Part shown: positions 2,943 through 64,000 of the stretch, in pieces | How the letters are laid out: each line of letters opens with the position of its first letter | Numbering within the stretch: the first letter of the stretch is position 1 | Assembly (NCBI GenBank): GCA_046597065.1 | Contig: JBKJLI010000003.1 | Span: 2,807 to 66,806, forward strand | Origin: Candidatus Saccharimonadia bacterium | GTDB taxonomy: Bacteria > Patescibacteriota > Saccharimonadia > UBA4664 > SCTI01 | Direction: 5' to 3' | Length of the DNA stretch: 64,000 nucleotides | Position numbers and translations under genes: made by a program | Notes under the pieces: generated by a model | Databases searched by the model: none | The model's input: only the letters and a program-made list of their open reading frames with translations | Told to the model about the DNA's origin: nothing

Positions 2943-4363
2943 GCCCGCACCTGCACGGCCGAGGCTGCCAGAAGTTGTTGAACCACTGGGTTGGGATCGG
3001 CGTTTTCGGCGAGTTGGGCCGATTTTTCGGCCGCCTGCTTTTTAAGCATAGGGATATTAAGTGATGCCCGCCCCTCGCCGGCCATTACCGTTGCCAGCAT
3101 TAAGTACTGCGTATTTAGGTCGTATAACTCGCTTGGTGGTTGTTTATAAATATCATATATGGCTTTACCCAATGCCAAATCAGCCTGAGTTTGGGGCGCA
3201 AGCTCTGATCCGAACTGCGAAAACTCTGAGGCCTGGCGAAAATCGGCCAACTTTTTAAACAGCAGCCCAGATAGTATCTTCCACTGGTTGTGCTGCACTC
3301 GGCCACCCACACGCGAAACGCTTAGGCCCACGTTTACAGCTGGTCTAATCCCGCGCCTAAAGCTATTTTGGTCGAATATAATCTGCCCGTCGGTGATACT
3401 CATTACGCTAGTGGGCAAGTAAGCGGTAATGTCATCGTTTGGTGTTAGTACCACTGGTAGCGCCGTTAAGGTGCCACCACTGCTGGCCAGTTTGCCGGCT
3501 CGTTCAAGTAGCGAAGAGTGGGCATAAAACATGTCGCCGGGGTAAGAGTCGCGACCGGGGCTAACTTCGGCCAGTAGGCTAAGTTCGCGATGGGCCTTGG
3601 CGTGATTGCTTAAATCGTCATAAATCATAATGACGTTTTTGCCGTCCCGCCAAAAGTGCTCACCAATTGCGCAGGCCACATACGGCGCCAAAAATGACAG
3701 GCTTAGGGCTTCAAAGGTACTGGCTACCACCATAATGGTGTTTTTCATGGCGCCGGTAGCCCTAAAGCTGGCCACCAGCGTATCAATATCCACCTGCCGC
3801 TTAGCAATTAGTACGTAAACCACAATCTGGCCGGCATTGGTTTGGTAGGTGGTTAGCTGGCGTAAAAAAGTACTTTTACCGGTTTTATTGTCTCCCAATA
3901 TGGCCAAGCGCTGCCCCAATACAAACGGAAACAGCGAATCTACAATCGACACACCAGTAACCAGTTGGTCGCTTAACATGTCGCGCTCAATAATTCCTGG
4001 TGCCGGAGCAAACACATCGTTATAGCCACTGATCGCAACCGGACCCTCCCCATCAAGCGGTTCACCCAGCACATTAATAATTCGCCCAACCAAGCCCTCG
4101 CCTACTCCGGTTTGGTAAACCTGCTGGTCTAAAACCGCCAGCATTCCCAATCGCAACCGGTTGGTTGAAAGTGCTAAGACTTCGACCAGCTGGTCACTAA
4201 CCGCCCGCACTAATCCTTGATCGCCATTTTCAAAACGGACTAGCGAGTTAATGCTCACGCCCTCTAGCCCGCGAACCTTAATTAAAAGTGAGTTGGTGCT
4301 TACAACCTCGCCGCTGGGACGGCCGTCGGCGATTAACTTGCTAAAAGCTTGGTTATCAAACAC
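2939..4363 (-). CDS. atpA: F1Fo ATP synthase alpha subunit
   Basis: 474 aa with P-loop GDNKTGKST and alpha-subunit conserved blocks (IYDDLSNHA..., ITDGQI). Confidence 0.95.
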
Positions 4364-54151: not shown

Positions 54152-55561
54152 ATGTATATGAATTTGCTTAGATTCAGAAAGCTACTTGCCCAGAAAAAAT
54201 ACTGGGTTATTGTGCTTATTGCAGTCCTAACTATCTCAATGGGGGCACGGTTTAATATAAAAATGGGACTTTCGGGTGACGAGCCGCACTACCTAGTTAT
54301 GGCAAATAGCCTCAAAGTCGATCATGATCTGAATGTAAAAAATGATTACGGGCAAAAAAGATACTTGCCGTACTACCCCGACACATTAGAGCCGCACATA
54401 AATTGGGCTCTGGTACAACAGTCCGGCGAACGTTGGCATTCAATACACGGGCCAGGTTTACCTCTACTAATTCTGCCCGGGGTCGTTTTTAGCAAGCGGC
54501 TTGGGGCACTCTTGATAATGATTGGCTTCGGATTGCTTGCAGTTGTTGCCGGTATATCTATTTCAAAACTAGTAGCAAGCAAAGGGGCTTCTTTTTTAGC
54601 CGGGCTGATGTTGGCATTAAGTGTTCCATTCCTCGCTCTAGCTGGCTATATCTTCCCAGATATAGTGATCGGATCGTTAACTGCATTAACATTTTTGCTA
54701 ATTAACATGAAATCCAAAACTCTTTGGCGAGATGTGGCGATTGGGGTATTATCGGCAACACTCATTTGGGTGCACGTCAAAACCAGTCTAGTTGCGGGAT
54801 CTCTCATTTTAATTGCAGTTTGGTACATTATTGAAAGTTCTAAGGATCTTACCAATCGCAATCGCAGGCTGGCAGCATTACTTGTGCCTTTCATTCTTTT
54901 GACCGGCCTACTTCAATTCAAGTTTTACCAATGGTTCGGTGTGTTCACTCCAAATGGTATCTATAAGGGTAACAATCAGCTATTTCAGCTGAATCCGTTC
55001 AAGTCACTCTTAGCAATACTATTCGATCCATTTAAGGGTCTGCTAATAATGAGTCCTATATGGTTTTGTGCCGTCGTGGGTTTGCCAGAATGGTATAAGC
55101 GAAATAAGAAGCAATTGTTATTTGTATTAGCAATAGTATTGCCGAGTTTTTTCATTCAATCTACTTTTGACGATTGGGCCGGAGGATGGAGCCCGCCAGC
55201 ACGATATACCGTTCAATATTTACCAATCCTGCTGCCAGCACTCGCGCTTGGCCTGGAGCTAATGCTGAGTAACGCAAAGATGCGGATCTACGCATTTACC
55301 CTCATTGTGGCACAAGTTACTATCGCCGCGACCTATATATTATTCAGGACTCCATGGGACTTCGCTGGTCACGAAGCTCCGTTTATTGTTGATTTGAAAG
55401 ACTCATTACATTTGAATTGGCTACCTACAATATTTTTCGACAACCATGCAAACCCTACAAAAGCTGGGATTGTAGTTATTTTAAGTAGCTTTTTCGTGAT
55501 GACTGCTTTATTAATTTTTAAAAAGTTTAGTCAATCAAGAAACAGCCGTAAAATAAGCTAA
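54152..55561 (+). CDS. Polytopic membrane protein, GT-C-like (candidate second lipid-linked-sugar transferase)
   Basis: About 12 TM. The first external loop has GLSGDEPHYLVMANSL (DE..Y motif as in ArnT/PMT/AftA-type GT-C). Confidence 0.4.
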   Translation: MYMNLLRFRKLLAQKKYWVIVLIAVLTISMGARFNIKMGLSGDEPHYLVMANSLKVDHDLNVKNDYGQKRYLPYYPDTLEPHINWALVQQSGERWHSIHGPGLPLLILPGVVFSKRLGALLIMIGFGLLAVVAGISISKLVASKGASFLAGLMLALSVPFLALAGYIFPDIVIGSLTALTFLLINMKSKTLWRDVAIGVLSATLIWVHVKTSLVAGSLILIAVWYIIESSKDLTNRNRRLAALLVPFILLTGLLQFKFYQWFGVFTPNGIYKGNNQLFQLNPFKSLLAILFDPFKGLLIMSPIWFCAVVGLPEWYKRNKKQLLFVLAIVLPSFFIQSTFDDWAGGWSPPARYTVQYLPILLPALALGLELMLSNAKMRIYAFTLIVAQVTIAATYILFRTPWDFAGHEAPFIVDLKDSLHLNWLPTIFFDNHANPTKAGIVVILSSFFVMTALLIFKKFSQSRNSRKIS

Positions 55562-56031
55562 CCCCGCTTCTTTACCACCAGCCGGCGTCTTTTATCCTCG
55601 CCCCGGCTCTCGGTGGTAACGTGCTCGTGATCGGTAAACAGTGAGTGAATCTGGCGGCGTTCGGCGGCGTTCATTTGCGGCAGCGGCACCTCATCTTCCT
55701 CACCATCGGCCACCTTACGAGCAGCTTCGTGGGCGCGTTCGGCAAGCCGTTCTAAGCGGCCCTGGCGGTAGCTTCCAACATCTATGCGTACATACACTCG
55801 TTCGGCGGTTAGGCGCCTGATCATCATGTTTAAAACGTGCTGAAGCGCCTCTAGAGTTTCACCCCTATGCCCAATTACGTGGGCTCCGTCTTCGCTTGCT
55901 ACTGCGAGCAAAATTGTGTCTTCGTCGCGGATTACAGTAGCCTCCGCATTAACCCCAAAAAAGGCCAGCAAGTCCTCAAACTGTTGCTTGGCCGCCGCCT
56001 CAACCGCACTTCCGGTTAACTGCTCCCTCAT
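55558..56031 (-). CDS. jag: KhpB/Jag-like RNA-binding protein (KH + R3H domains), minimal form
   Basis: KH-like GHRGETLEAL and R3H (LPQMNAAERRQIHSLFTDHEHVTTESRGE..RRLVV). Conserved position downstream of yidC. Confidence 0.65.
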   Translation of the reverse strand: MREQLTGSAVEAAAKQQFEDLLAFFGVNAEATVIRDEDTILLAVASEDGAHVIGHRGETLEALQHVLNMMIRRLTAERVYVRIDVGSYRQGRLERLAERAHEAARKVADGEEDEVPLPQMNAAERRQIHSLFTDHEHVTTESRGEDKRRRLVVKKRG

Positions 56032-56873
56032 TTGCGAGCTCGCTTGCCGCCCTTTTTGCGCGCCTTGGCCTTTTTAGCTGAAGCAACCGGTTCGCTAGAA
56101 GCCAGTGTGCGAGTGGTGATCTTGCTTACTCCGGTTTCACCAACCACCTCCATTTCGTGGGCATCGCGCAGTAGCACGTGGTACTGCTGATAAACCGCAA
56201 TCGCGCTGGTAACCGTCCAGTATAGGGCCAAAGCCGAGGGCAGCGTTAAGCCGATGCCAAAGGTTAATATTGGGAAAAGGTAAATGATGTTCTGCATCAT
56301 CCGGACCTGGGGGTCGGTAGAGGCGGCGGCACCCTTGGGCTGTAGCATCTTGCTTTGGTAAAACTGGGCGGCGGCGGCGGTTAGCGCCAAAAACCAGCTA
56401 GGCTGGGCCAGGTTAATCACCCCAAACAGCGTTGGTGAAAAGCTTCCCGGGTTGGCGATAACGTTGGCCACTTCGGGGATGCGCTCAACAAAGCCGTAGG
56501 TTAGCTTGGCAATCTGGTCACCATGCACGGCGTCGCTAAATACAATGTAGATGGCAAAAAAGATTGGCAGCTGAAATAACAGCGGTAAAATTGGGGCCAG
56601 CGGGCTGGTACCCTTTTCTTTATACAAATCCATCATCATCTGGGTTTCAAGCTGGCGATCACCACCGGCCTTGGCCTTCACCTTGGCAATTTCGGGGGCC
56701 AGCGCTTGCACCTTCTTTTGCGAGTGCAGTTGCCTAGTTACTAGCGGCCAAATGGCTAGCCGGACTAAAACGGTTAGCAAAATAACCGCCAGGCCAAGAT
56801 CATGACCAGGCAGCCATCCATAAATGGCAAACAGAATGTTAAATAATGGTTGAACAAAAATTACGGTAAACAT
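56028..56873 (-). CDS. yidC: Membrane protein insertase YidC (short, Gram-positive-type)
   Basis: 5 TM with a YidC/Oxa1 core. C-terminal Lys/Arg-rich tail (KKAKARKKGGKRARK). Sits in the rnpA-yidC-jag cluster. Confidence 0.85.
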   Translation of the reverse strand: MFTVIFVQPLFNILFAIYGWLPGHDLGLAVILLTVLVRLAIWPLVTRQLHSQKKVQALAPEIAKVKAKAGGDRQLETQMMMDLYKEKGTSPLAPILPLLFQLPIFFAIYIVFSDAVHGDQIAKLTYGFVERIPEVANVIANPGSFSPTLFGVINLAQPSWFLALTAAAAQFYQSKMLQPKGAAASTDPQVRMMQNIIYLFPILTFGIGLTLPSALALYWTVTSAIAVYQQYHVLLRDAHEMEVVGETGVSKITTRTLASSEPVASAKKAKARKKGGKRARK

Positions 56874-56887
56874 ATCTAAACCTGTCT

Positions 56888-57244
56888 CTACTTGGCTTTT
56901 GAGCCGTTAATTAAATCGGCCTTGGTTAACACCTCTACCACCAGCTTTTCCAGCTGGGCGGCGGTTTTGGCGCTAAGATCGGCGCGTACCGTCACTACTA
57001 TATCGTATCCGGGGGCGACTGTCTGCCACCCGCGTTGAGCCACTCCCACGATCTGTCGACGCAAACGGTTGCGAACGGTTGCGCGTTTAGACACCTTTTT
57101 ACTGACAATCACCACCAAACGGCTTTCGGCGTTGCCATTACGGGCCGATCGCACCAGCAGCTCTGGGTTTGATACTCCCCGACCCTGCTTAAAAACCCGC
57201 GAGATTTCGCGGGGTTTTTTTAAACGGTTGGGAGCTGGCAGCAC
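56888..57244 (-). CDS. rnpA: Ribonuclease P protein component
   Basis: 118 aa, basic. RNR-like motif region (VRNRLRRQI). Immediately downstream of rpmH. Confidence 0.8.
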   Translation of the reverse strand: MLPAPNRLKKPREISRVFKQGRGVSNPELLVRSARNGNAESRLVVIVSKKVSKRATVRNRLRRQIVGVAQRGWQTVAPGYDIVVTVRADLSAKTAAQLEKLVVEVLTKADLINGSKAK

Positions 57245-57253
57245 CAGAGCGCC

Positions 57254-57391
57254 TTAAATTGCGACGCGCGTTCGGCCCTTGGCCCGACGTCGTTGCAACA
57301 CGGCTCGGCCGGCGCGACTAGACATGCGCTTTAAAAAGCCATGGACGCGTTGGCGGCGGGTTTTCTTTGGCTGATACGTTCGCTTACTCAT
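57254..57391 (-). CDS. rpmH: 50S ribosomal protein L34
   Basis: 45 aa, [45 protein letters not shown]. Below the 60-aa ORF-track threshold but unmistakable. Confidence 0.9.
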
Positions 57392-57626
57392 ACTCGAGAC
57401 ATCATAGCGGTTTTGAGCCTACAGGTCAATCCGTTGTAGGAGGTTAAAAGCGAACACTAAATTTGTTTTTCCCCGAAATTAGCCGATTTATCCCCCTTTT
57501 TACATCTGTTGCTGTATACCCTGTGGACAGAATGTATTAAAATTTCATGGTTGTGAGTTAGCCGCAATTACGGTTATGATTGAGCTATCAAACGACACTA
57601 AATTGCGTTTAAAACGGTGGAGGTTT
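57392..57626. promoter_or_regulatory. oriC part A (rpmH-dnaA intergenic): dnaA promoter region with DnaA-box-like motifs TTTTCCCCG, TTATCCCCC and TGTGGACAG
   Basis: The motifs match the TTATCCACA consensus at 7 of 9 positions. The region is AT-rich. Confidence 0.4.
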
Positions 57627-58991
57627 ATGAGTTCACAAAAGCTGTGGCAGGCTGTTCTCGGCGAGCTAGAAGTTAGCTTTACCCGGGCTCAGTTTGAAAC
57701 TTGGTTCAAGGGCACCTCGGTGATTGCCAGCGAGGACGGCTACATTGTTGTGGGCGTTCCAAACATTTTCACTAAAGAGTGGCTCGAAAAAAAGTACTGC
57801 CAGCAGATTAGTGATAGCCTAAGCCGCATTGCCCCCGACATCGAGGGCATAAAGTACACCGTTACAACGGTGGGCGGCAAGGTTAGTGGCGCTCGTGATC
57901 AAATTATTGCCCCCATCGAAGCTCCGGTAACGGTTGTGGCCGCTACTCCAACTCCCACCCAGGGTGCCAATAAAAAACTCAATCACCGCTACACTCTAGA
58001 TGGTTTTGTGGTTGGTTCTAGTAATGATTTGGCCTTTGCGGCAAGTCAGGCCGTGGTGGCTGCGCCTGGTGCCAAGTACAACCCGCTATTTATTTACGGT
58101 GGCGTTGGGCTTGGCAAAACCCACTTAATTCAAGCCATTGGAAACGAAATCAACCGTAATGATCCCTCCAAAAAAGTCCTGTATGTCACCAGCGAACAGT
58201 TCACTAATGAGTTCTTAAACAGTATTTCCGGCAAAAGCACCAAAAAATTCACCGAAAAGTACCGCAGCCTAGACGTTTTAATCGTCGACGACATTCAGTT
58301 TTTGGGCAACAAAGAACGGACCCAAGAAGAGTTCTTTCACACCTTTAACACCCTGTATGAGGCTAATAAACAGGTTATTCTTTCGAGCGATAAACCACCA
58401 CGCGACATCCCCCACCTAGAAGACCGTCTGCGCTCTCGCTTTGGCTGGGGCATGGTGGCCGACATTCAAAAACCAGACTTTGAAACCCGCGCCGCCATTA
58501 TTCAGCGCAAGGCTGCTAGTCGTGGAATAAATCTAGAACTGCCGGTTATCGAACACATCGCTCGTCATCACCAGCACAATATCCGCGACCTCGAAGGCAC
58601 CTTAACCAACATTCTGGCTCAGTGTGAGCTAAAAGACCGCGAACCTTCACTCGAGTTTGTAAACTCTATTTTAGGTGCCGCAGCACCGGCCACTAAGCGC
58701 CGCTTGGCCACCCCTAAAATGATCATCGAAAAGACGGCCGGATTCTTTGATATTAGTCCGTCTGACATTACCGGCCAGTGTCGCGATAAAGATATTGTAG
58801 TACCACGCCAAATCGCCATGTATATCATGCGCCAAGAGTTGGGTTTGAGCTTTCCAAAGATTGCCCAAAACGTTGGCGGTCGCGACCACACAACGGCCAT
58901 GCATTCGGTATCAAAGATAGAGAAGTTATTAGAGGTTAATGAGGAGCTTCGCTCCGAGGTGAGTCAGGTTCGGGAACGCGTCACCCTGTGA
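57576..58991 (+). CDS. dnaA: Chromosomal replication initiator DnaA
   Basis: Domain III Walker A GGVGLGKTHL, sensor motifs, and domain IV DnaA-box binding helix (VVPRQIAMYIMRQELGLSFPKIAQNVGGRDHTTAMHS). The probable biological start is the internal ATG at ~57627 (MSSQKLWQAVLGELE...) behind a GGAGG RBS, not the track start at 57576. Confidence 0.95.
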   Translation: MIELSNDTKLRLKRWRFMSSQKLWQAVLGELEVSFTRAQFETWFKGTSVIASEDGYIVVGVPNIFTKEWLEKKYCQQISDSLSRIAPDIEGIKYTVTTVGGKVSGARDQIIAPIEAPVTVVAATPTPTQGANKKLNHRYTLDGFVVGSSNDLAFAASQAVVAAPGAKYNPLFIYGGVGLGKTHLIQAIGNEINRNDPSKKVLYVTSEQFTNEFLNSISGKSTKKFTEKYRSLDVLIVDDIQFLGNKERTQEEFFHTFNTLYEANKQVILSSDKPPRDIPHLEDRLRSRFGWGMVADIQKPDFETRAAIIQRKAASRGINLELPVIEHIARHHQHNIRDLEGTLTNILAQCELKDREPSLEFVNSILGAAAPATKRRLATPKMIIEKTAGFFDISPSDITGQCRDKDIVVPRQIAMYIMRQELGLSFPKIAQNVGGRDHTTAMHSVSKIEKLLEVNEELRSEVSQVRERVTL

Positions 58992-59276
58992 TCAAAGTGA
59001 CAAAAAGCTGGGGGAAAACTGAGGGTATCTTGTGGGCAAGGTCCCTCTTTTTGTTGGGCCGGTTAGCATCCTGGGGAAAAACCATAACAACTTTACCCAG
59101 TTTGGCCCCAACTCGTCCCCTAAACCGTAAGCAGTTTTCCCATTGGCTGGGGACGCAAAAAGGTTTAACTCAAGCTAAAAACCAGGGCTTTCCCCACTAT
59201 CCCCACCCCCTACTACTACCCCAACTTATTTTAAAAATTACTAAAGTATAATATTAGTCACGAAAGGTGTGGATTA
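58992..59276. promoter_or_regulatory. oriC part B (dnaA-dnaN intergenic): cluster of TT(T/A)TCCCC(A/C)-type boxes, a TGTGGATTA box abutting dnaN, and an AT-rich DUE candidate (TTATTTTAAAAATTACTAAAGTATAATATTAGTC, ~59222..59256)
   Basis: TGGGGGAAAA (59011) and TGGGGAAAAA (59074) are the reverse complement of TTTTCCCCA. TTTCCCCAC and TATCCCCAC lie at ~59187..59210. TGTGGATTA at ~59265 matches the reverse complement of TTATCCACA at 8 of 9 positions. The 87-aa ORF 58988..59251 is regarded as non-coding. Confidence 0.5.
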
Positions 59277-60383
59277 ATGAAACTCAGCGTCACCCAAGAA
59301 AATCTGAATAAGGCTCTAGCTTCAGTGGGGCGAGTTGTTAGTAACCGCGCCAGTCTGCCGGTATTAAGTAATGTCTTATTAAGTGCCGATTCTAGCCAAC
59401 TTAGAATTGCCGCAACCAATTTAGAGATTGGAATAAACTACTGGATTGGCGGCAAGGTCGAAGAAAAGGGCGCCTTAACTGTACCGGCAAGGTTGTTGGG
59501 CGAGTTCGTGGGTAATCTTCCAGCCGGTAATTTAGAGCTCAGCGCCGAGGATTCCAACTTAAGTGTTAAAGCCAAACACCACAATTCGCACATTAACGGC
59601 ATATCGGCCGAGGACTTCCCTTTAATTCCAGAGGTTAAGGGTGAGCCGGTTTTAACCCTAGAGTGTCAGCCGTTTAAAGAGGCTATTGCCGAAGTGGTTC
59701 TGGCGGCTGCGCTAGATGAAAGCCGACCGGTTTTGGCTGGAGTTTTAATGCGGATTGAAGATGGAGAGTTAATCATGGCCGCCACCGACAGCTTTCGCCT
59801 GGCCGAACGTCGCATAAAGCTGCCTAAGGGTCATAAAGGTGAGTTAGACGTAATTGTTCCGGCTCGTACCATGCAAGTGCTGGTGCGGATTCTGGGTGAC
59901 AGTGAGGGCGAGGCCAGTATGCACGTAGCCGACAGCCAGGTGTTATTTAGACTCGAAAATGTTGAGTTGGTTTCGCGCACCATCGATGGCACCTACCCCA
60001 ACTACCCCCAAATAATCCCAGCTACCGAGGAAACCAACGCCACCGTTAATGTGGCTGAATTAACTCGCATCACTAAGATGGCTAATCTGTTTGCCCGCGA
60101 AAATGGCGGCGGCGTTAAGGTTGAGGTTCAAGCCGAAGGCGAGATTAGGATTATGGCGGCGGCCAGTCAAGTTGGCGAAAACACCTCTAGCGCCGACTGC
60201 GAGGTGGCTGGTGATGACGCCGAAATTTCGATTAATGCTCGCTTTTTAACCGACGCCTTAGGGGTTATAAAAACCGAAAAGGTCAGCTTTAGCACCAGCG
60301 GCAAGCTTAACCCCTGCGTGCTGCGGCCGGTTGGCAACAACACCCACGACTATCTTCACATTATTATGCCGCTGCGCTCTTAG
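59277..60383 (+). CDS. dnaN: DNA polymerase III beta subunit (sliding clamp)
   Basis: 368 aa, three-domain clamp. N-terminal MKLSVTQENLNKAL... Position after dnaA. Confidence 0.9.
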   Translation: MKLSVTQENLNKALASVGRVVSNRASLPVLSNVLLSADSSQLRIAATNLEIGINYWIGGKVEEKGALTVPARLLGEFVGNLPAGNLELSAEDSNLSVKAKHHNSHINGISAEDFPLIPEVKGEPVLTLECQPFKEAIAEVVLAAALDESRPVLAGVLMRIEDGELIMAATDSFRLAERRIKLPKGHKGELDVIVPARTMQVLVRILGDSEGEASMHVADSQVLFRLENVELVSRTIDGTYPNYPQIIPATEETNATVNVAELTRITKMANLFARENGGGVKVEVQAEGEIRIMAAASQVGENTSSADCEVAGDDAEISINARFLTDALGVIKTEKVSFSTSGKLNPCVLRPVGNNTHDYLHIIMPLRS

Positions 60384-60410: not shown

Positions 60411-61457
60411 GTGATTAAACGGCTTTCATTAACCAACTTTCGCTCCTACGCCAACACCAGCTTTGATTTTGGCCCACTGGTTACGGTTGTTGTGGGTCCT
60501 AACGCTACTGGTAAGACCAACTTGCTAGAGGCTGTGTTTGTACTAGCAACCACCCGCAGCTTTAGAGCCAAAGATCCAGAGTTAATTAACCATCAAGCCG
60601 ACTTTTACCGGATTGTGGCCGCCACCCCAAATGGTGAAATTGCCTTAGGCTATCAAAACAGCGATACCACTACCAAAAAGGCCCAGCACGACGGCGCCAA
60701 CCAAACCCTTATGCAGCATTTAGGCCACCTGCGTACCGTGCTGTTTGAGCCCAACGACTTACAGTTAATTTCTGGTGCGCCAGATCGCCGCCGCCGCTAC
60801 CTGGATTTTATCCTCACCCAAACCCAACCCAACTACTTAAAAACCCTGCATCAGTACCGAAGGGTGTTGCAACAACGCAACCGTCTGCTTTCCGACTGGC
60901 ATGGCAATGATGGCGAGCTGTTTGCCTGGAACCTTAAACTGACCGAACTGGCTACCGACATCGACACCGCACGCCGCACGCTCGTAGAGCATCTAAACCA
61001 GCGCATACCCACACTGTATGCAGAAATTGCCGGTAAGCCAGCCCAACTCGAACTAATCTACCTGGGCAGCGCCGATGCGATTAACTACTCCGATACCTTT
61101 TTGGCTCGGCTTGAATCCAACCTGTCGCGCGACATTGGTGCCGGCTTTACCACCATTGGCCCCCACCGCGACGATCTAGAGATCCGCTTTAAACAGGCCA
61201 GTACCACAGCCGTGGCCAGCCGCGGCGAAATGCGCACGGTAGTGCTGGCGCTAAAGTTTGCCGAGCTGGAATACATTCACAAACACTCTGGCATCTCCCC
61301 CATTCTTTTACTCGACGATGTTTTTAGTGAGCTCGACGGACGCCGCCGCGAGTACTTAATTAACCGGCTAGATAGCCACCAAGCTATAATTACCACAACC
61401 GACGCCGATACCAGCAAGCGCTTAGACGGAGCCACCGTAATCGAGACTAAACTATGA
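60411..61457 (+). CDS. recF: DNA replication and repair protein RecF
   Basis: N-terminus MIKRLSLTNFRSYANTSFDFGPLVTVVVGPNATGKTNLLEA (Walker A). SMC-like signature and Walker B (LLLDDVFSELD). Confidence 0.9.
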   Translation: MIKRLSLTNFRSYANTSFDFGPLVTVVVGPNATGKTNLLEAVFVLATTRSFRAKDPELINHQADFYRIVAATPNGEIALGYQNSDTTTKKAQHDGANQTLMQHLGHLRTVLFEPNDLQLISGAPDRRRRYLDFILTQTQPNYLKTLHQYRRVLQQRNRLLSDWHGNDGELFAWNLKLTELATDIDTARRTLVEHLNQRIPTLYAEIAGKPAQLELIYLGSADAINYSDTFLARLESNLSRDIGAGFTTIGPHRDDLEIRFKQASTTAVASRGEMRTVVLALKFAELEYIHKHSGISPILLLDDVFSELDGRRREYLINRLDSHQAIITTTDADTSKRLDGATVIETKL

Positions 61458-61708
61458 GTGATGATTTAAAAGACTATTTGGCCAAAAAAGCCACTCAACT
61501 GGGCCTTGAACGCGAAGATCAACTTGGCGAGATCCAAGCCTTCTTAAACCAGCTCCACCCCAACACCTACCGTGCCACCACCATTAATAATGGGGTATTA
61601 AAAATCGTAACTGCGAGCGCCCCCGCCGCCAGCGACCTCCGCCACAATCAGGTAGAACTACTCAGCCGTTTTGATTACGTAAAGCGTTTGGCAATTGTTA
61701 TCGGGTAG
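61454..61708 (+). CDS. DUF721 domain protein (DciA-like, candidate helicase operator)
   Basis: 84 aa overlapping the recF stop. NNGVLKIVTASAPAASDLRHNQVELLSRF resembles the DUF721 core (GxLxVxVxSsaWAxEL...LL..LN). Conserved dnaN/recF neighbourhood. Confidence 0.45.
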   Translation: MSDDLKDYLAKKATQLGLEREDQLGEIQAFLNQLHPNTYRATTINNGVLKIVTASAPAASDLRHNQVELLSRFDYVKRLAIVIG

Positions 61709-62431
61709 CTAATCGCCTCCGGTAGGCTCGCCACCACTTGGCGGATCGGTGCTAAGAGTCGGTTTATAAGTTACCTTGTAGTCAGATAATTTAAACCCGT
61801 GGTCAGTAATAAATTTATTCGCCTCATTTCGATACTGGGAGGTTGTTTGTGCGAATGCTGCCTGTTGTTCAGGTCGGTTCAAGATGGCGTAGGTCGTTAC
61901 ATTGATATTGAGTGAACTGTCAGGGTTAACTGTATAATCGATTTTAAAATGAGACTCTTCGTGTGGAAGGTACTGCACTAATGGTTGTTTCTTTTCCAAA
62001 GAATCGGTTTGTTTATTTACTCTGTCTTTTTCTTCTTTAGATAGGTCTGTATAGCCCTTGTACTTGATCTTGAATTTTAAAACAAAGCTACCTAATTCGT
62101 CTCCCTTAGTGCTTCTCGGTTTGACTATTGTTAGGCTATACTTTTCACCAATTTTCAAACTGGTTGAGGGTCTAAAAATCACATCCTTTCCGGAAAGGGA
62201 GAATTTCCCTTCGACATAAGGCGAAATCTTAATGCCCTTTAAGGTACTGGAATCCAGATCGCGGTTAAAACGGACCGATATATCTTGGGCATAATTGGCA
62301 TCACCATTTTGAGAAGGGTTACTCGACACGGCTCTAAAAACCAAAGCATCGAAAACCAGGTAACCAGCAATAATAAGAGCCAGTGCGGCAACCCCACCAA
62401 TTAAATACTTTCTCACTTCTGGTGCCCCCAT
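61709..62431 (-). CDS. Membrane-anchored extracytoplasmic protein (hypothetical) with Pro/Gly-rich C-terminus
   Basis: N-terminal TM (LIGGVAALALIIAGYLVF), about 190 aa beta-rich region, ending DPPSGGEPTGGD. Confidence 0.4.
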   Translation of the reverse strand: MGAPEVRKYLIGGVAALALIIAGYLVFDALVFRAVSSNPSQNGDANYAQDISVRFNRDLDSSTLKGIKISPYVEGKFSLSGKDVIFRPSTSLKIGEKYSLTIVKPRSTKGDELGSFVLKFKIKYKGYTDLSKEEKDRVNKQTDSLEKKQPLVQYLPHEESHFKIDYTVNPDSSLNINVTTYAILNRPEQQAAFAQTTSQYRNEANKFITDHGFKLSDYKVTYKPTLSTDPPSGGEPTGGD

Positions 62432-63606
62432 CCCTTTATGGTATTGTCCGATCGGTAGTTGCTGTATTTTCTTCTGGCCACCCTGTTACTCGTGTTCCCC
62501 TCGATTGTTGTTACCTCGCCGCCAGACACACTCTCGACAATACCAATATGAGTGTCATTGCCGGACTCGTCACCACTATGGTTGAAGTCAATAATATCTC
62601 CCGGCCTTGGAGTTGGAGCGCCTGGTTTGTTTTGATAATACACTCCATTAGCCTGCATCCAGGCAACAACTCCTGCTACCGCCGGCAGCCTCCAGCCCCC
62701 ACTTTCGCCCCCAGTAAACGGCTTGCCGGCCTGCTTGTATACCCAGCTTAAGAAATCGGCACACCAAAATTCAGGATGGTTATCGGTGTATGTGTTAATG
62801 GGACCGCCACAGTTACATCCGTCCGGACTTTCTTGAACATTTTTGGCCAACTCTTGCCTGGCCACATCAACAATACTGCCACCCCCCGATCCGCTACAGA
62901 CCCCGCCATCAATTCCCACTAATGCCGCAAAAACCGTAACTGCCCCTAAGTTGCTATCCTTGCCATTAACTGGTTCGTAGGGGGGATTGTAGGGCCATGA
63001 CATGTCATTGTGGCTACTATCATATTGATTCATAGCATATGGTGATTTATCGGGATCTATGCCTCCTTGTTTGTAGAGGCCGCCTCTATTGTAGGCGACA
63101 AATATCTTCTTCAGCTCATCAACTGAGTTGCTTTTACCGACTTTTACACCATAGACGTTTTGGGCATTATCCTTCATTAACTTTGCTGCGTAAGTCGCCC
63201 CTTCTTTGACGGTATGTATTACTAATCCAGGGTGGTCTGGATTTGGACTGCCAAGAGGCTCTCCGGCCAATGGCGAGGTATTTGGGTCGTTATGGTTTTC
63301 GCGGTAATGAACCGCTGCAATAAACTGCCATGGTACTCCCTCGGCTTCGGCGGCCTGGTAATCACTTTGCAATTTATTTATGGCATCAACCGTGGATTTG
63401 GGAAGATTGACACTAGTAGGAACCGATCCACTGCAGGTGCCTCCTTCGGTTGAGTAAAATTCGGATCCGTGGCTTACTGATCTAACATCTTCTTTTGAAA
63501 CCGTGGTTGCAAAGGTGATGTTCGGGAATCCAATAGCCATAAATAGCATGAAAAATAGAATGGTTTTTTTCATCACTGGGCGTACCCCGTTGATCCAGGG
63601 CCGCAC
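62413..63606 (-). CDS. Secreted peptidoglycan hydrolase: N-terminal lysozyme/lytic-transglycosylase-like domain + C-terminal CHAP (Cys/His amidohydrolase/peptidase) domain
   Basis: Signal peptide. AEAEGVPWQFIAAVHYRENHNDP block is similar to the N-domain of the 764-aa protein. The C-terminus has a CHAP pattern: Cys in FWCADFLSWVYKQAG and His in GNDTHIGIVESV. Confidence 0.55.
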   Translation of the reverse strand: MRPWINGVRPVMKKTILFFMLFMAIGFPNITFATTVSKEDVRSVSHGSEFYSTEGGTCSGSVPTSVNLPKSTVDAINKLQSDYQAAEAEGVPWQFIAAVHYRENHNDPNTSPLAGEPLGSPNPDHPGLVIHTVKEGATYAAKLMKDNAQNVYGVKVGKSNSVDELKKIFVAYNRGGLYKQGGIDPDKSPYAMNQYDSSHNDMSWPYNPPYEPVNGKDSNLGAVTVFAALVGIDGGVCSGSGGGSIVDVARQELAKNVQESPDGCNCGGPINTYTDNHPEFWCADFLSWVYKQAGKPFTGGESGGWRLPAVAGVVAWMQANGVYYQNKPGAPTPRPGDIIDFNHSGDESGNDTHIGIVESVSGGEVTTIEGNTSNRVARRKYSNYRSDNTIKGWGHQK

Positions 63607-63977
63607 TTACCAGCGCTTGTATCTAGTGAGCGACCATCGCTTGGTAGGTAATCCAGGGGGTTCAGTGTTCCGGGGTTAGCCGCATTCCCAAGAGCACCGG
63701 CTTGGTCTTGGATATTGAAGTGTAGGTGAGGGCCCTTTGAGCCACCAGTGTTTCCGGTTTTGCCAATCACATCGCCTTGCTTTACCTTTTGACCTACCGA
63801 AACACCAATTTCATTTAAATGGCCATACAGGGTCCATCTGCCATTACCATGATTTATAACTACCATATTTCCATAACCAGACGGATCTTGGGTGCCGTTA
63901 GCAATTTCAACTGTCCCATCGGCTGATGCATGAGCGGGTGTGCCAATAGGTGCGGTAATATCTATACCTGCGTGCAA
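63573..63977 (-). CDS. M23-family (LytM-type) peptidase, partial: N-terminus lies beyond the right window edge
   Basis: HAGIDITAPIGTP (HxxxD) and GNTGGSKGPHLHFNI (HxH) are the two M23 zinc motifs. The frame is open to the window end. Confidence 0.7.
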   Translation of the reverse strand: MHAGIDITAPIGTPAHASADGTVEIANGTQDPSGYGNMVVINHGNGRWTLYGHLNEIGVSVGQKVKQGDVIGKTGNTGGSKGPHLHFNIQDQAGALGNAANPGTLNPLDYLPSDGRSLDTSAGKCGPGSTGYAQ

Positions 63978-64000
63978 GTGATTGCCTCGGTCATTTTTCC

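Follow-up and report, generated by a model that had tools for sequence, protein, structure and literature searches.

The two intergenic spacers that flank dnaA in a 64,000-nucleotide stretch of Candidatus Saccharimonadia bacterium DNA (GenBank assembly GCA_046597065.1, contig JBKJLI010000003.1; the whole stretch is hereafter called the window) very probably form the chromosomal origin of replication (oriC) of this Saccharimonadia (TM7) bacterium, an origin of the bipartite kind found in Bacillus and Clostridioides. This assignment is based on the anatomy of the spacers, on their conservation in related genomes and on the canonical residues of the initiator protein DnaA. By analogy with studied systems, we infer that DnaA would bind, unwind and fire the origin at this locus. 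Both the rpmH-dnaA spacer (57392–57626, 235 bp) and the dnaA-dnaN spacer (58992–59276, 285 bp) carry enriched and conserved clusters of DnaA boxes, with three boxes and one decayed box upstream of dnaA and at least eight box-like sites downstream of it, and a complete basal unwinding system (BUS) is present at 59188–59258, next to dnaN. Within the window, the two spacers are thus the strongest candidate for an origin; no second box cluster or other origin candidate was found in its 64 kb.

For comparison we used eight relatives whose DnaA proteins are 62–89% identical and whose loci were obtained through exact-protein look-ups, giving nine family genomes and 18 spacers including those of the window. 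The upstream spacer was also aligned across three genomes (the window and relatives L081 and L083), and the unwinding module was searched for in a broad panel of about 160 more distant loci among the matches listed, with DnaA identities of at most 54%.

A predicted basal unwinding system next to dnaN

The strongest evidence for the unwinding site predicted at 59210–59258 comes from its DnaA-trios. These are part of the BUS, a module that was defined in Bacillus subtilis and has been proposed to be widespread (PMC6669920, PMC8287927). In the window, the module begins with two tandem boxes on the + strand, box 1 (CTTTCCCCA, 59188–59196) and box 2 (CTATCCCCA, 59197–59205). A 4-nt GC cluster, CCCC (59206–59209, + strand), lies between box 2 and three trios, CTA CTA CTA (59210–59218), which read 3'-GAT GAT GAT-5' on the − strand; CTACTACTA occurs once in the 64-kb window. 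Next comes an AT-rich unwinding region of 33 nt (59226–59258) with 91% A+T, which places it in the top 0.025% of all 33-nt segments of the window. Published BUS searches call for a box with at most two mismatches, 0–16 bp from the first of at least three trios of the form 3'-NAN-5', preferably 3'-GAT-5', and the GC gap between box and trios averages 4 bp in the published set (PMC8287927). The window module has all of these features: box 2, CTATCCCCA, has two mismatches to TTATCCACA, the first trio lies 4 nt downstream, and all three trios are GAT. A preliminary description of this DNA, which had proposed a bipartite origin around dnaA, did not include the trios. The tandem motifs that it quoted, TTTCCCCAC (59189–59197) and TATCCCCAC (59198–59206), are present, as is the AT-rich stretch near dnaN, for which it had given a length of 35 nt.

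The family alignment places the module at the same position and in the same orientation in all eight relatives. The CTA of the first trio and the box endings CCCA and CC.CA are invariant, and the trios are kept in most relatives. In the relatives, box 1 reads TTATACCCA, TTTTACCCA or (G)TATCCCCA, with an invariant CCCA ending, and across the nine genomes it is mostly TTATACCCA; the site orthologous to box 2 reads T(A/T)TCCACA in four of the nine and T(A/T)TCCCCA in the other five. The AT-rich stretch carries a conserved TAA..TATA(A/C)TA block that includes TATAAT or TATACT, which could be the −10 element of dnaN.

In the broad panel, we searched with a regular expression for two adjacent boxes followed, after 3–5 nt, by at least three trios, using the reverse strand and equal-length dnaA coding segments as controls. 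Among the matches listed, the module lay on the correct strand in 45/129 dnaA-dnaN spacers, which span several phyla, compared with 8/129 on the reverse strand and 1/129 in the coding segments. The same order and orientation were seen in Saccharibacteria of about 50% DnaA identity, other Patescibacteria, Bacillales, Clostridia and other loci.

On the far side of the AT-rich stretch, an inverted box, TAATCCACA (59268–59276, − strand; TGTGGATTA on the strand quoted by the preliminary description), abuts the dnaN start codon (ATG, 59277) and overlaps the ribosome-binding region. It is the only site in the two spacers with at most one mismatch to TTATCCACA. The preliminary description had been right about this near-canonical box, though not in placing it about 10 nt before the start codon, which it touches. 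Its TGTG is invariant in the nine family genomes and TGTGG is found in eight of them. The inverted TGTGGA(A/T) on the dnaN ribosome-binding site is specific to the family; most Saccharibacteria of about 50% identity have a plain site of the AAGGAG or AAAGGA type. With the rightward tandem boxes, the dnaN-abutting box forms a set of convergent boxes that bracket the AT-rich stretch.

DnaA boxes are enriched in both spacers

Box-like words are concentrated in the two spacers. Of 20 occurrences of T[AT]TCCCC in the 64 kb, six fall within the 520 bp of the spacers (expected 0.16, binomial P = 1e-8), as do six of the 31 occurrences of TCC[AC]CA (P = 2e-7). TCCCCA cores number 22 in the window, four of them in the dnaA-dnaN spacer (expected 0.18 in the spacers, P = 3e-5). 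The longer TTWTCCCC is not over-represented across the window (8 versus 6.2 expected), and half of its copies (4/8) are in the two spacers. A search with the relaxed motif TTWTCCMCA and at most one mismatch, of the kind that the preliminary description had suggested, found the densest 300-bp cluster of the whole window starting at 59001, with six matches; the runners-up had three. An unbiased 7-mer enrichment over the 18 family spacers returned as top words the dnaA −10 element and the canonical TGTCCAC, GTCCACA and TCCACAG, and also C-type words (TATACCC, TCCCCAG and ATCCCCA), the ribosome-binding site, promoter words and the trio word TACTACT.

All motifs quoted in the preliminary description were found, and its expectation that the sites would be conserved in orthologous spacers was borne out in both spacers across the eight relatives. 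Upstream of dnaA, box U1 (TTTTCCCCG, 57467–57475, + strand) contains TGTTTTTCCCCG, invariant in the three-genome alignment. The family alternates here between TTTTCCCC and TTTTCCAC or TTTATCCAC, and the equivalent in more distant relatives is TTTTTCCAC, TTTATCCAC or TTTTCCCCA. Box U2 (TTATCCCCC, 57488–57496, + strand) reads TTATCCAC or TTTTCCAC in all eight relatives; on this comparison, the C at its position 7 is a change specific to the window genome. Box U3 is inverted (CTGTCCACA, quoted earlier as TGTGGACAG; 57522–57530, − strand), and its TGTGGA is invariant in the three-genome alignment; seven of the nine upstream spacers have CTGTGGA or TTGTGGA, and the other two TGTGCA. An ATCTGTT block (57505–57511), which is not box-like, lies just downstream of U2 and at the same place in 8/8 relatives, with the variants ATCTGGT, ATCAGTT, ATCTGAT and ACCTGAT.

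The upstream boxes lie between two predicted promoters. That of rpmH, TTGACC-17-TATGAT (57401–57429, − strand), matches at 10 of 12 positions in a promoter scan, and its −35 element corresponds to a GTCAAT block that is invariant in the three-genome alignment and present in 8/9 upstream spacers. The same scan predicts a dnaA promoter, TTGTGA-18-TATGAT (57551–57580, + strand). Its −10 word, CGGTTATGATT, is the most enriched of all and is found in all nine family genomes, and its −35 element overlaps the decayed box, a site whose sequence is TTGTGGACAA in 6/8 relatives. This layout suggests that DnaA may regulate its own gene. The whole upstream arrangement is kept in the family: the rpmH promoter, U1, U2, the ATCTGTT block, inverted U3 and, for dnaA, a −35 element overlapped by an inverted box, the −10 word CGGTTATGATT and a ribosome-binding site. 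The upstream spacer of relative L170 is 417 bp long rather than about 220 bp, owing to an insertion of 200–300 bp, and the box modules at its ends are intact.

Downstream of dnaA, the first box after the stop codon is D1 (TTTTCCCCCA, or TGGGGGAAAA on the + strand; 59009–59018, − strand). Its orthologue reads TGTGGAAAT in two relatives, L165 and L167; L083, L166 and L170 have TGGGGAAAT or TGGGGATTT, and TGGGGA(A/T)TT is seen in others. Box D3 (TTGCCCACA, 59031–59039, − strand) lies in a CTGTG(A/G)GCAA block kept in most relatives, in which alignment columns T43 and G44 are invariant. The box at 59072–59080 (− strand), TTTTCCCCA, quoted earlier as TGGGGAAAA, matches the lineage consensus TTWTCCMCA at every position and could not be aligned in relatives because that part of the spacer is variable. 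A middle array (59102–59143, + strand) consists of weak C-rich sites in one orientation, TTGGCCCCA, GTCCCCT and TTTTCCCAT; CCCCAACTC(G/A)TCCCC and TTTTC(C/A)C are kept in L081 and L083, and the corresponding stretch in relatives holds several TCCCCA, CCCCCA or TACCCA sites.

Directly ahead of the tandem boxes, an AT-rich block, GGCTTAATGAAGGnTTAATnAAAG, is common to the relatives of 62–74% identity (L083 and L165–L169). Its counterpart in the window, at about 59160–59185, has diverged (AAAGGTTTAACTCAAGCTAAAAACC), as has that of L081. An accessory protein might bind this block, or the block may serve as a further segment that melts readily. In L169 the dnaA-dnaN spacer (3363–3942) measures 580 bp instead of about 280 bp, again through an insertion of 200–300 bp with intact box modules at the ends.

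C-rich boxes are variants of the ordinary DnaA box

Where the window genome has C-rich boxes, relatives often have TCCACA or TTATCCAC; these boxes are therefore ordinary DnaA-box variants rather than a new motif. Since canonical TGTCCAC and TCCACA words top the 7-mer enrichment, the lineage box is best written TT(T/A)TCC(A/C)C, with the window genome at its C-rich end. In the trio-proximal box, C at position 7 was found in five of the nine family genomes and, among the matches listed, in 2/38 regex-matched spacers outside the family; the tolerance is therefore real and concentrated in the family. The proposal in the preliminary description that a C-rich core is a lineage-specific variant thus holds as far as frequency is concerned, but not in the sense of a separate motif. 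C-type trio-proximal boxes must have arisen more than once, since they are also found in the unrelated L145 (metagenome contig Ga0187892_10007955, 43% DnaA identity), where two TCCCCA boxes, CCATCCCCA CAATCCCCA, stand directly ahead of the trios.

The DnaA protein offers no counterpart to these changes. The equivalents of R399, P423, D433, H434, T435 and H439, base-contact residues listed after Fujikawa 2003 in PMC7561715, are identical to those of Escherichia coli in the window DnaA and in all eight relatives. No domain IV difference that tracks C-type versus A-type boxes was found among the window and its relatives, and altered base-contact residues in domain IV, such as would mark a re-specified pair of DnaA and box (for example, the Thermotoga 12-mer with its diverged domain IV), are absent. 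Because the contact residues are unchanged, nothing indicates a re-tuned initiator, and variants of weaker affinity are the simpler reading. For the residues whose roles are described in PMC6669920, alignment to 8btg shows that the Arg finger R264 and the single-stranded-DNA-binding K222 are identical to those of B. subtilis DnaA, with a conservative change of I190 to L. The window DnaA has a Cys (GQCRDKD; 58713–58721, residues ~363–365) one residue ahead of the R399 equivalent, where relatives have R or K (PRR, SRR, AKR). This Cys does not track box type, as L081 has Arg there and yet has C-type boxes.

Deviation from TTATNCACA generally lowers DnaA affinity in the systems studied (PMC5043019), and TCCCCA is the consensus of the five weak W-boxes in the Caulobacter origin (PMC4285127, PMC6393856). 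A C at position 7 therefore probably lowers DnaA affinity in this family too, and the family tolerates it. We tentatively raise the possibility, which we hold to be less probable than its converse, that the essential trio-proximal boxes of this Saccharimonadia family are of the W-box type (TCCCCA or TACCCA) rather than of the consensus type, with either a DnaA that tolerates C at position 7 or an attenuated origin. If this were so and binding equalled that to TCCACA, DnaA would accept C at this position with no change in its known contact residues; if binding were weak, firing in these tiny epibionts would need high occupancy by ATP-DnaA, a built-in slow-start origin.

Evidence against an origin and alternative explanations

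Several observations weigh against an origin at dnaA. No perfect TTATCCACA was found in the 64-kb window. There is no local GC-skew turning point at dnaA, where the preliminary description had expected the minimum of the whole replicon: cumulative G−C goes from 0 to about −1400 over 1–57 kb, with a flat stretch at 36–60 kb, and is still falling, to −1596, near 63 kb; the window covers 4.7 kb to the right of dnaN. The fall over 1–57 kb agrees with a lagging + strand on the left of the origin. Coding-strand skew does not change polarity across dnaA, either in the window or in two relatives (10-kb flanks); the window values are −0.012 (left, + strand), +0.086 (left, − strand), −0.061 (right, + strand) and +0.058 (right, − strand). 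Skew at third codon positions (GC3) is contradictory in the same three genomes, and the results by gene class are dominated by a few genes. The preliminary description had reported a switch in leading-strand gene orientation at dnaA, and this is seen for the four nearest genes on each side; beyond them, both flanks point toward dnaA. On the left, this is a + strand glycosyltransferase/Wzy operon of about 20 kb (35133–55561), and on the right, a − strand cluster resembling a type IV secretion system (61709–64000; 14067–21374 in L171/L172). The right-hand cluster encodes a hypothetical protein, an amidase/glucosaminidase, a protein of ~1150–1200 aa and a TraG/VirB4-like ATPase, and is conserved in relatives. 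Since these operons converge on dnaA, they would run head-on into replication forks if an origin fires there, the opposite of the usual co-orientation, and such an arrangement, conserved in relatives, is unusual for an origin. We also considered another orientation switch, at ~35.1 kb, as an alternative origin and rejected it, as the genes overlap there and leave no intergenic space.

The lack of a local switch in GC skew or gene orientation would be accounted for if the boxes were only transcriptional operators for autoregulation of dnaA and dnaN, with the real origin elsewhere on the replicon. The overlap of the decayed box with the dnaA −35 element fits such a role, as do the box on the dnaN ribosome-binding site and the conserved TATAAT within the AT-rich stretch. 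Operators alone, however, leave unexplained a conserved, orientation-specific module of paired boxes, GC cluster, CTA trios and AT-rich DNA, which is the arrangement defined as an unwinding module (PMC8287927). In addition, GC skew puts the origin of a closed genome from a related Saccharibacterium in the dnaA-dnaN interval (PMC6031116), the window holds no other box cluster, and operator and origin roles coexist in known bipartite origins. We therefore regard a regulatory role of the boxes as partly true but insufficient alone, and a purely regulatory role as unlikely. It is harder still to credit that the conserved blocks of the dnaA-dnaN spacer reflect a structured RNA leader or a small protein gene, a reading to which we assign almost no probability, even though an 87-aa open reading frame (ORF; 58988–59251) spans the spacer. 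A structured RNA was rejected: the predicted fold is no better than that of shuffled sequences (z = 0.18; in 200 shuffles, 112 folded equally well or better), and Rfam searches gave no match in either spacer even at E ≤ 1, with only sub-threshold chance matches across 56.5–60 kb. The ORF was rejected as a gene, as it has no Pfam match and its frame is not conserved: the spacers of relatives differ by insertions and deletions and share short blocks only, which fits protein-binding sites rather than a reading frame.

A different question is whether, within an origin at dnaA, the DnaA of this lineage has a shifted or broadened specificity, such that the TCCCCA box (TTATCCCCA) is full-strength and preferred and not a weak variant of TTATCCACA. 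The prevalence of C would be in line with this: box 1 ends in CCCA in 9/9 family genomes, box 2 has TCCCCA at the family and outside frequencies given above (5/9 and, among the matches listed, 2/38), and the otherwise invariant U2 has changed from A to C in the window genome. Against it stand the six unchanged base-contact residues, the lack of any domain IV difference that tracks box type, and canonical TCCACA words that are still the most enriched in the family. Deviation from TTATNCACA is also known to lower affinity in the systems studied (PMC5043019), and TCCCCA is bound only weakly in Caulobacter (PMC4285127). We thus consider a shift in specificity very unlikely.

Gene context and proposed initiation mechanism

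The spacers lie within a neighbourhood, rnpA-rpmH <-|-> dnaA-dnaN-recF-dciA, whose order is shared by relatives with contigs that reach that far; Pfam assignments confirmed the order rpmH<-|->dnaA-dnaN-recF given in the preliminary description. To the left, on the − strand, Pfam identifies jag/khpB (55558–56031), yidC (56028–56873), rnpA (56888–57244) and rpmH (57254–57391). To the right, on the + strand, are dnaA (57627–58991; DnaA_N, Bac_DnaA and Bac_DnaA_C), dnaN (59277–60383; all three beta-clamp domains), recF (60411–61457) and a small DciA-like gene (61454–61708; PF05258, 23.0 bits, slightly below the cutoff of 24). The true start of dnaA is the ATG at 57627, which has a GGAGG ribosome-binding site ahead of it; a longer ORF, from 57576, would start within the −10 element of the dnaA promoter. 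The DciA-like gene, directly after dnaA-dnaN-recF, is syntenic in most relatives with loci that extend beyond recF; in this lineage, a gene for a helicase loader thus seems to accompany the origin operon.

Under our preferred reading of the spacers as oriC, and by analogy with B. subtilis, initiation may proceed as follows. DnaA would bind the box cluster upstream of its own gene, probably repressing its promoter there as well, and also the cluster between dnaA and dnaN. Within the latter spacer, on the side of dnaN, the two tandem boxes (59188–59205) would position ATP-DnaA, from which an oligomer could extend onto the three trios on the bottom strand (59210–59218, 3'-GAT-5'), stretching and opening the adjoining segment of 91% A+T (59226–59258). 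Helicase loading would come next, probably with the aid of the DciA-like product of the operon that holds dnaA.

Comparison with known origins and significance

Our literature search found no paper describing origin anatomy in Saccharibacteria or the candidate phyla radiation (CPR). The present analysis provides a base-level origin map for this uncultivated, reduced-genome lineage and adds Patescibacteria to the groups covered by a box-trio unwinding module whose universality has been proposed. Orthologous origins that alternate between A and C at box position 7 offer a natural series for testing the stringency with which DnaA recognises it. In practice, the coordinates could serve to choose genome start points and to interpret coverage-based growth estimates in Saccharibacteria and the CPR.

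The candidate origin most resembles that of B. subtilis, where box clusters likewise occupy both spacers of the same rpmH-dnaA-dnaN context, incA and incB upstream of dnaA and incC between dnaA and dnaN (Richardson 2016/2019; Pelliciari 2021; PMC6669920, PMC8287927), and where incC is divided, as is the window spacer, into distal and proximal box subregions relative to the trios (PMC6669920). Both have the same tandem pair, 4-nt GC cluster, at least three 3'-GAT-5' trios and AT-rich region, all oriented toward dnaN. Unlike B. subtilis, the window has TCCCCA rather than TCCACA in its trio-proximal boxes, only three clean trios and an extra inverted box abutting the dnaN start codon. The helicase-loader gene near the window module is DciA-like, whereas Bacillus uses DnaD/DnaB/DnaI for helicase loading. 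In Clostridioides difficile, oriC1 and oriC2 are also arranged in a bipartite manner around dnaA, and the dnaA-dnaN spacer there has a trio sequence, CACCTACTACTA..., before its unwinding region; the trio sequence 5'-CACCTACTACTATTACTACTATGA is nearly identical to that of the window, whereas boxes in C. difficile conform to TTWTNCACA and a P1 nuclease assay has demonstrated unwinding at that origin (PMC7561715).

The box variants themselves have parallels elsewhere. The W-boxes of Caulobacter crescentus (Taylor et al. 2011), as described in PMC4285127 and PMC6393856, have the same TCCCCA core, differ from TCCACA at the same position and occur as several C-type copies in one origin beside a few boxes closer to consensus. 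However, the origin of Caulobacter lies elsewhere than dnaA-dnaN and is controlled by CtrA, and its W-boxes are 6-mers, whereas the window boxes keep the 5' TT(T/A) of the 9-mer and C-type sites stand at the trio-proximal positions of the unwinding module. The preliminary description had likened the boxes to a cyanobacterial/Helicobacter-type TTTTCCACA. This is the cyanobacterial consensus, and the likeness is fair for position 3, where T is common in the Saccharimonadia family (TTTTCCAC, TTTTCCCC), and for an origin that adjoins dnaN, but cyanobacterial boxes keep A at position 7 (PMC4674748); the consensus of Helicobacter pylori is TCATTCACN (PMC5043019). The closed saccharibacterial genome of 'T. 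rhizospherense' (Starr et al. 2018) belongs to the same class and has its predicted origin at the same dnaA-dnaN location; in the available text of that paper (PMC6031116), the origin is placed by GC skew only, with no description of boxes, trios or an unwinding region. The only distinctive trait of the candidate origin in the window is its heavy use of W-box-like boxes with C at position 7, including at the trio-proximal positions.

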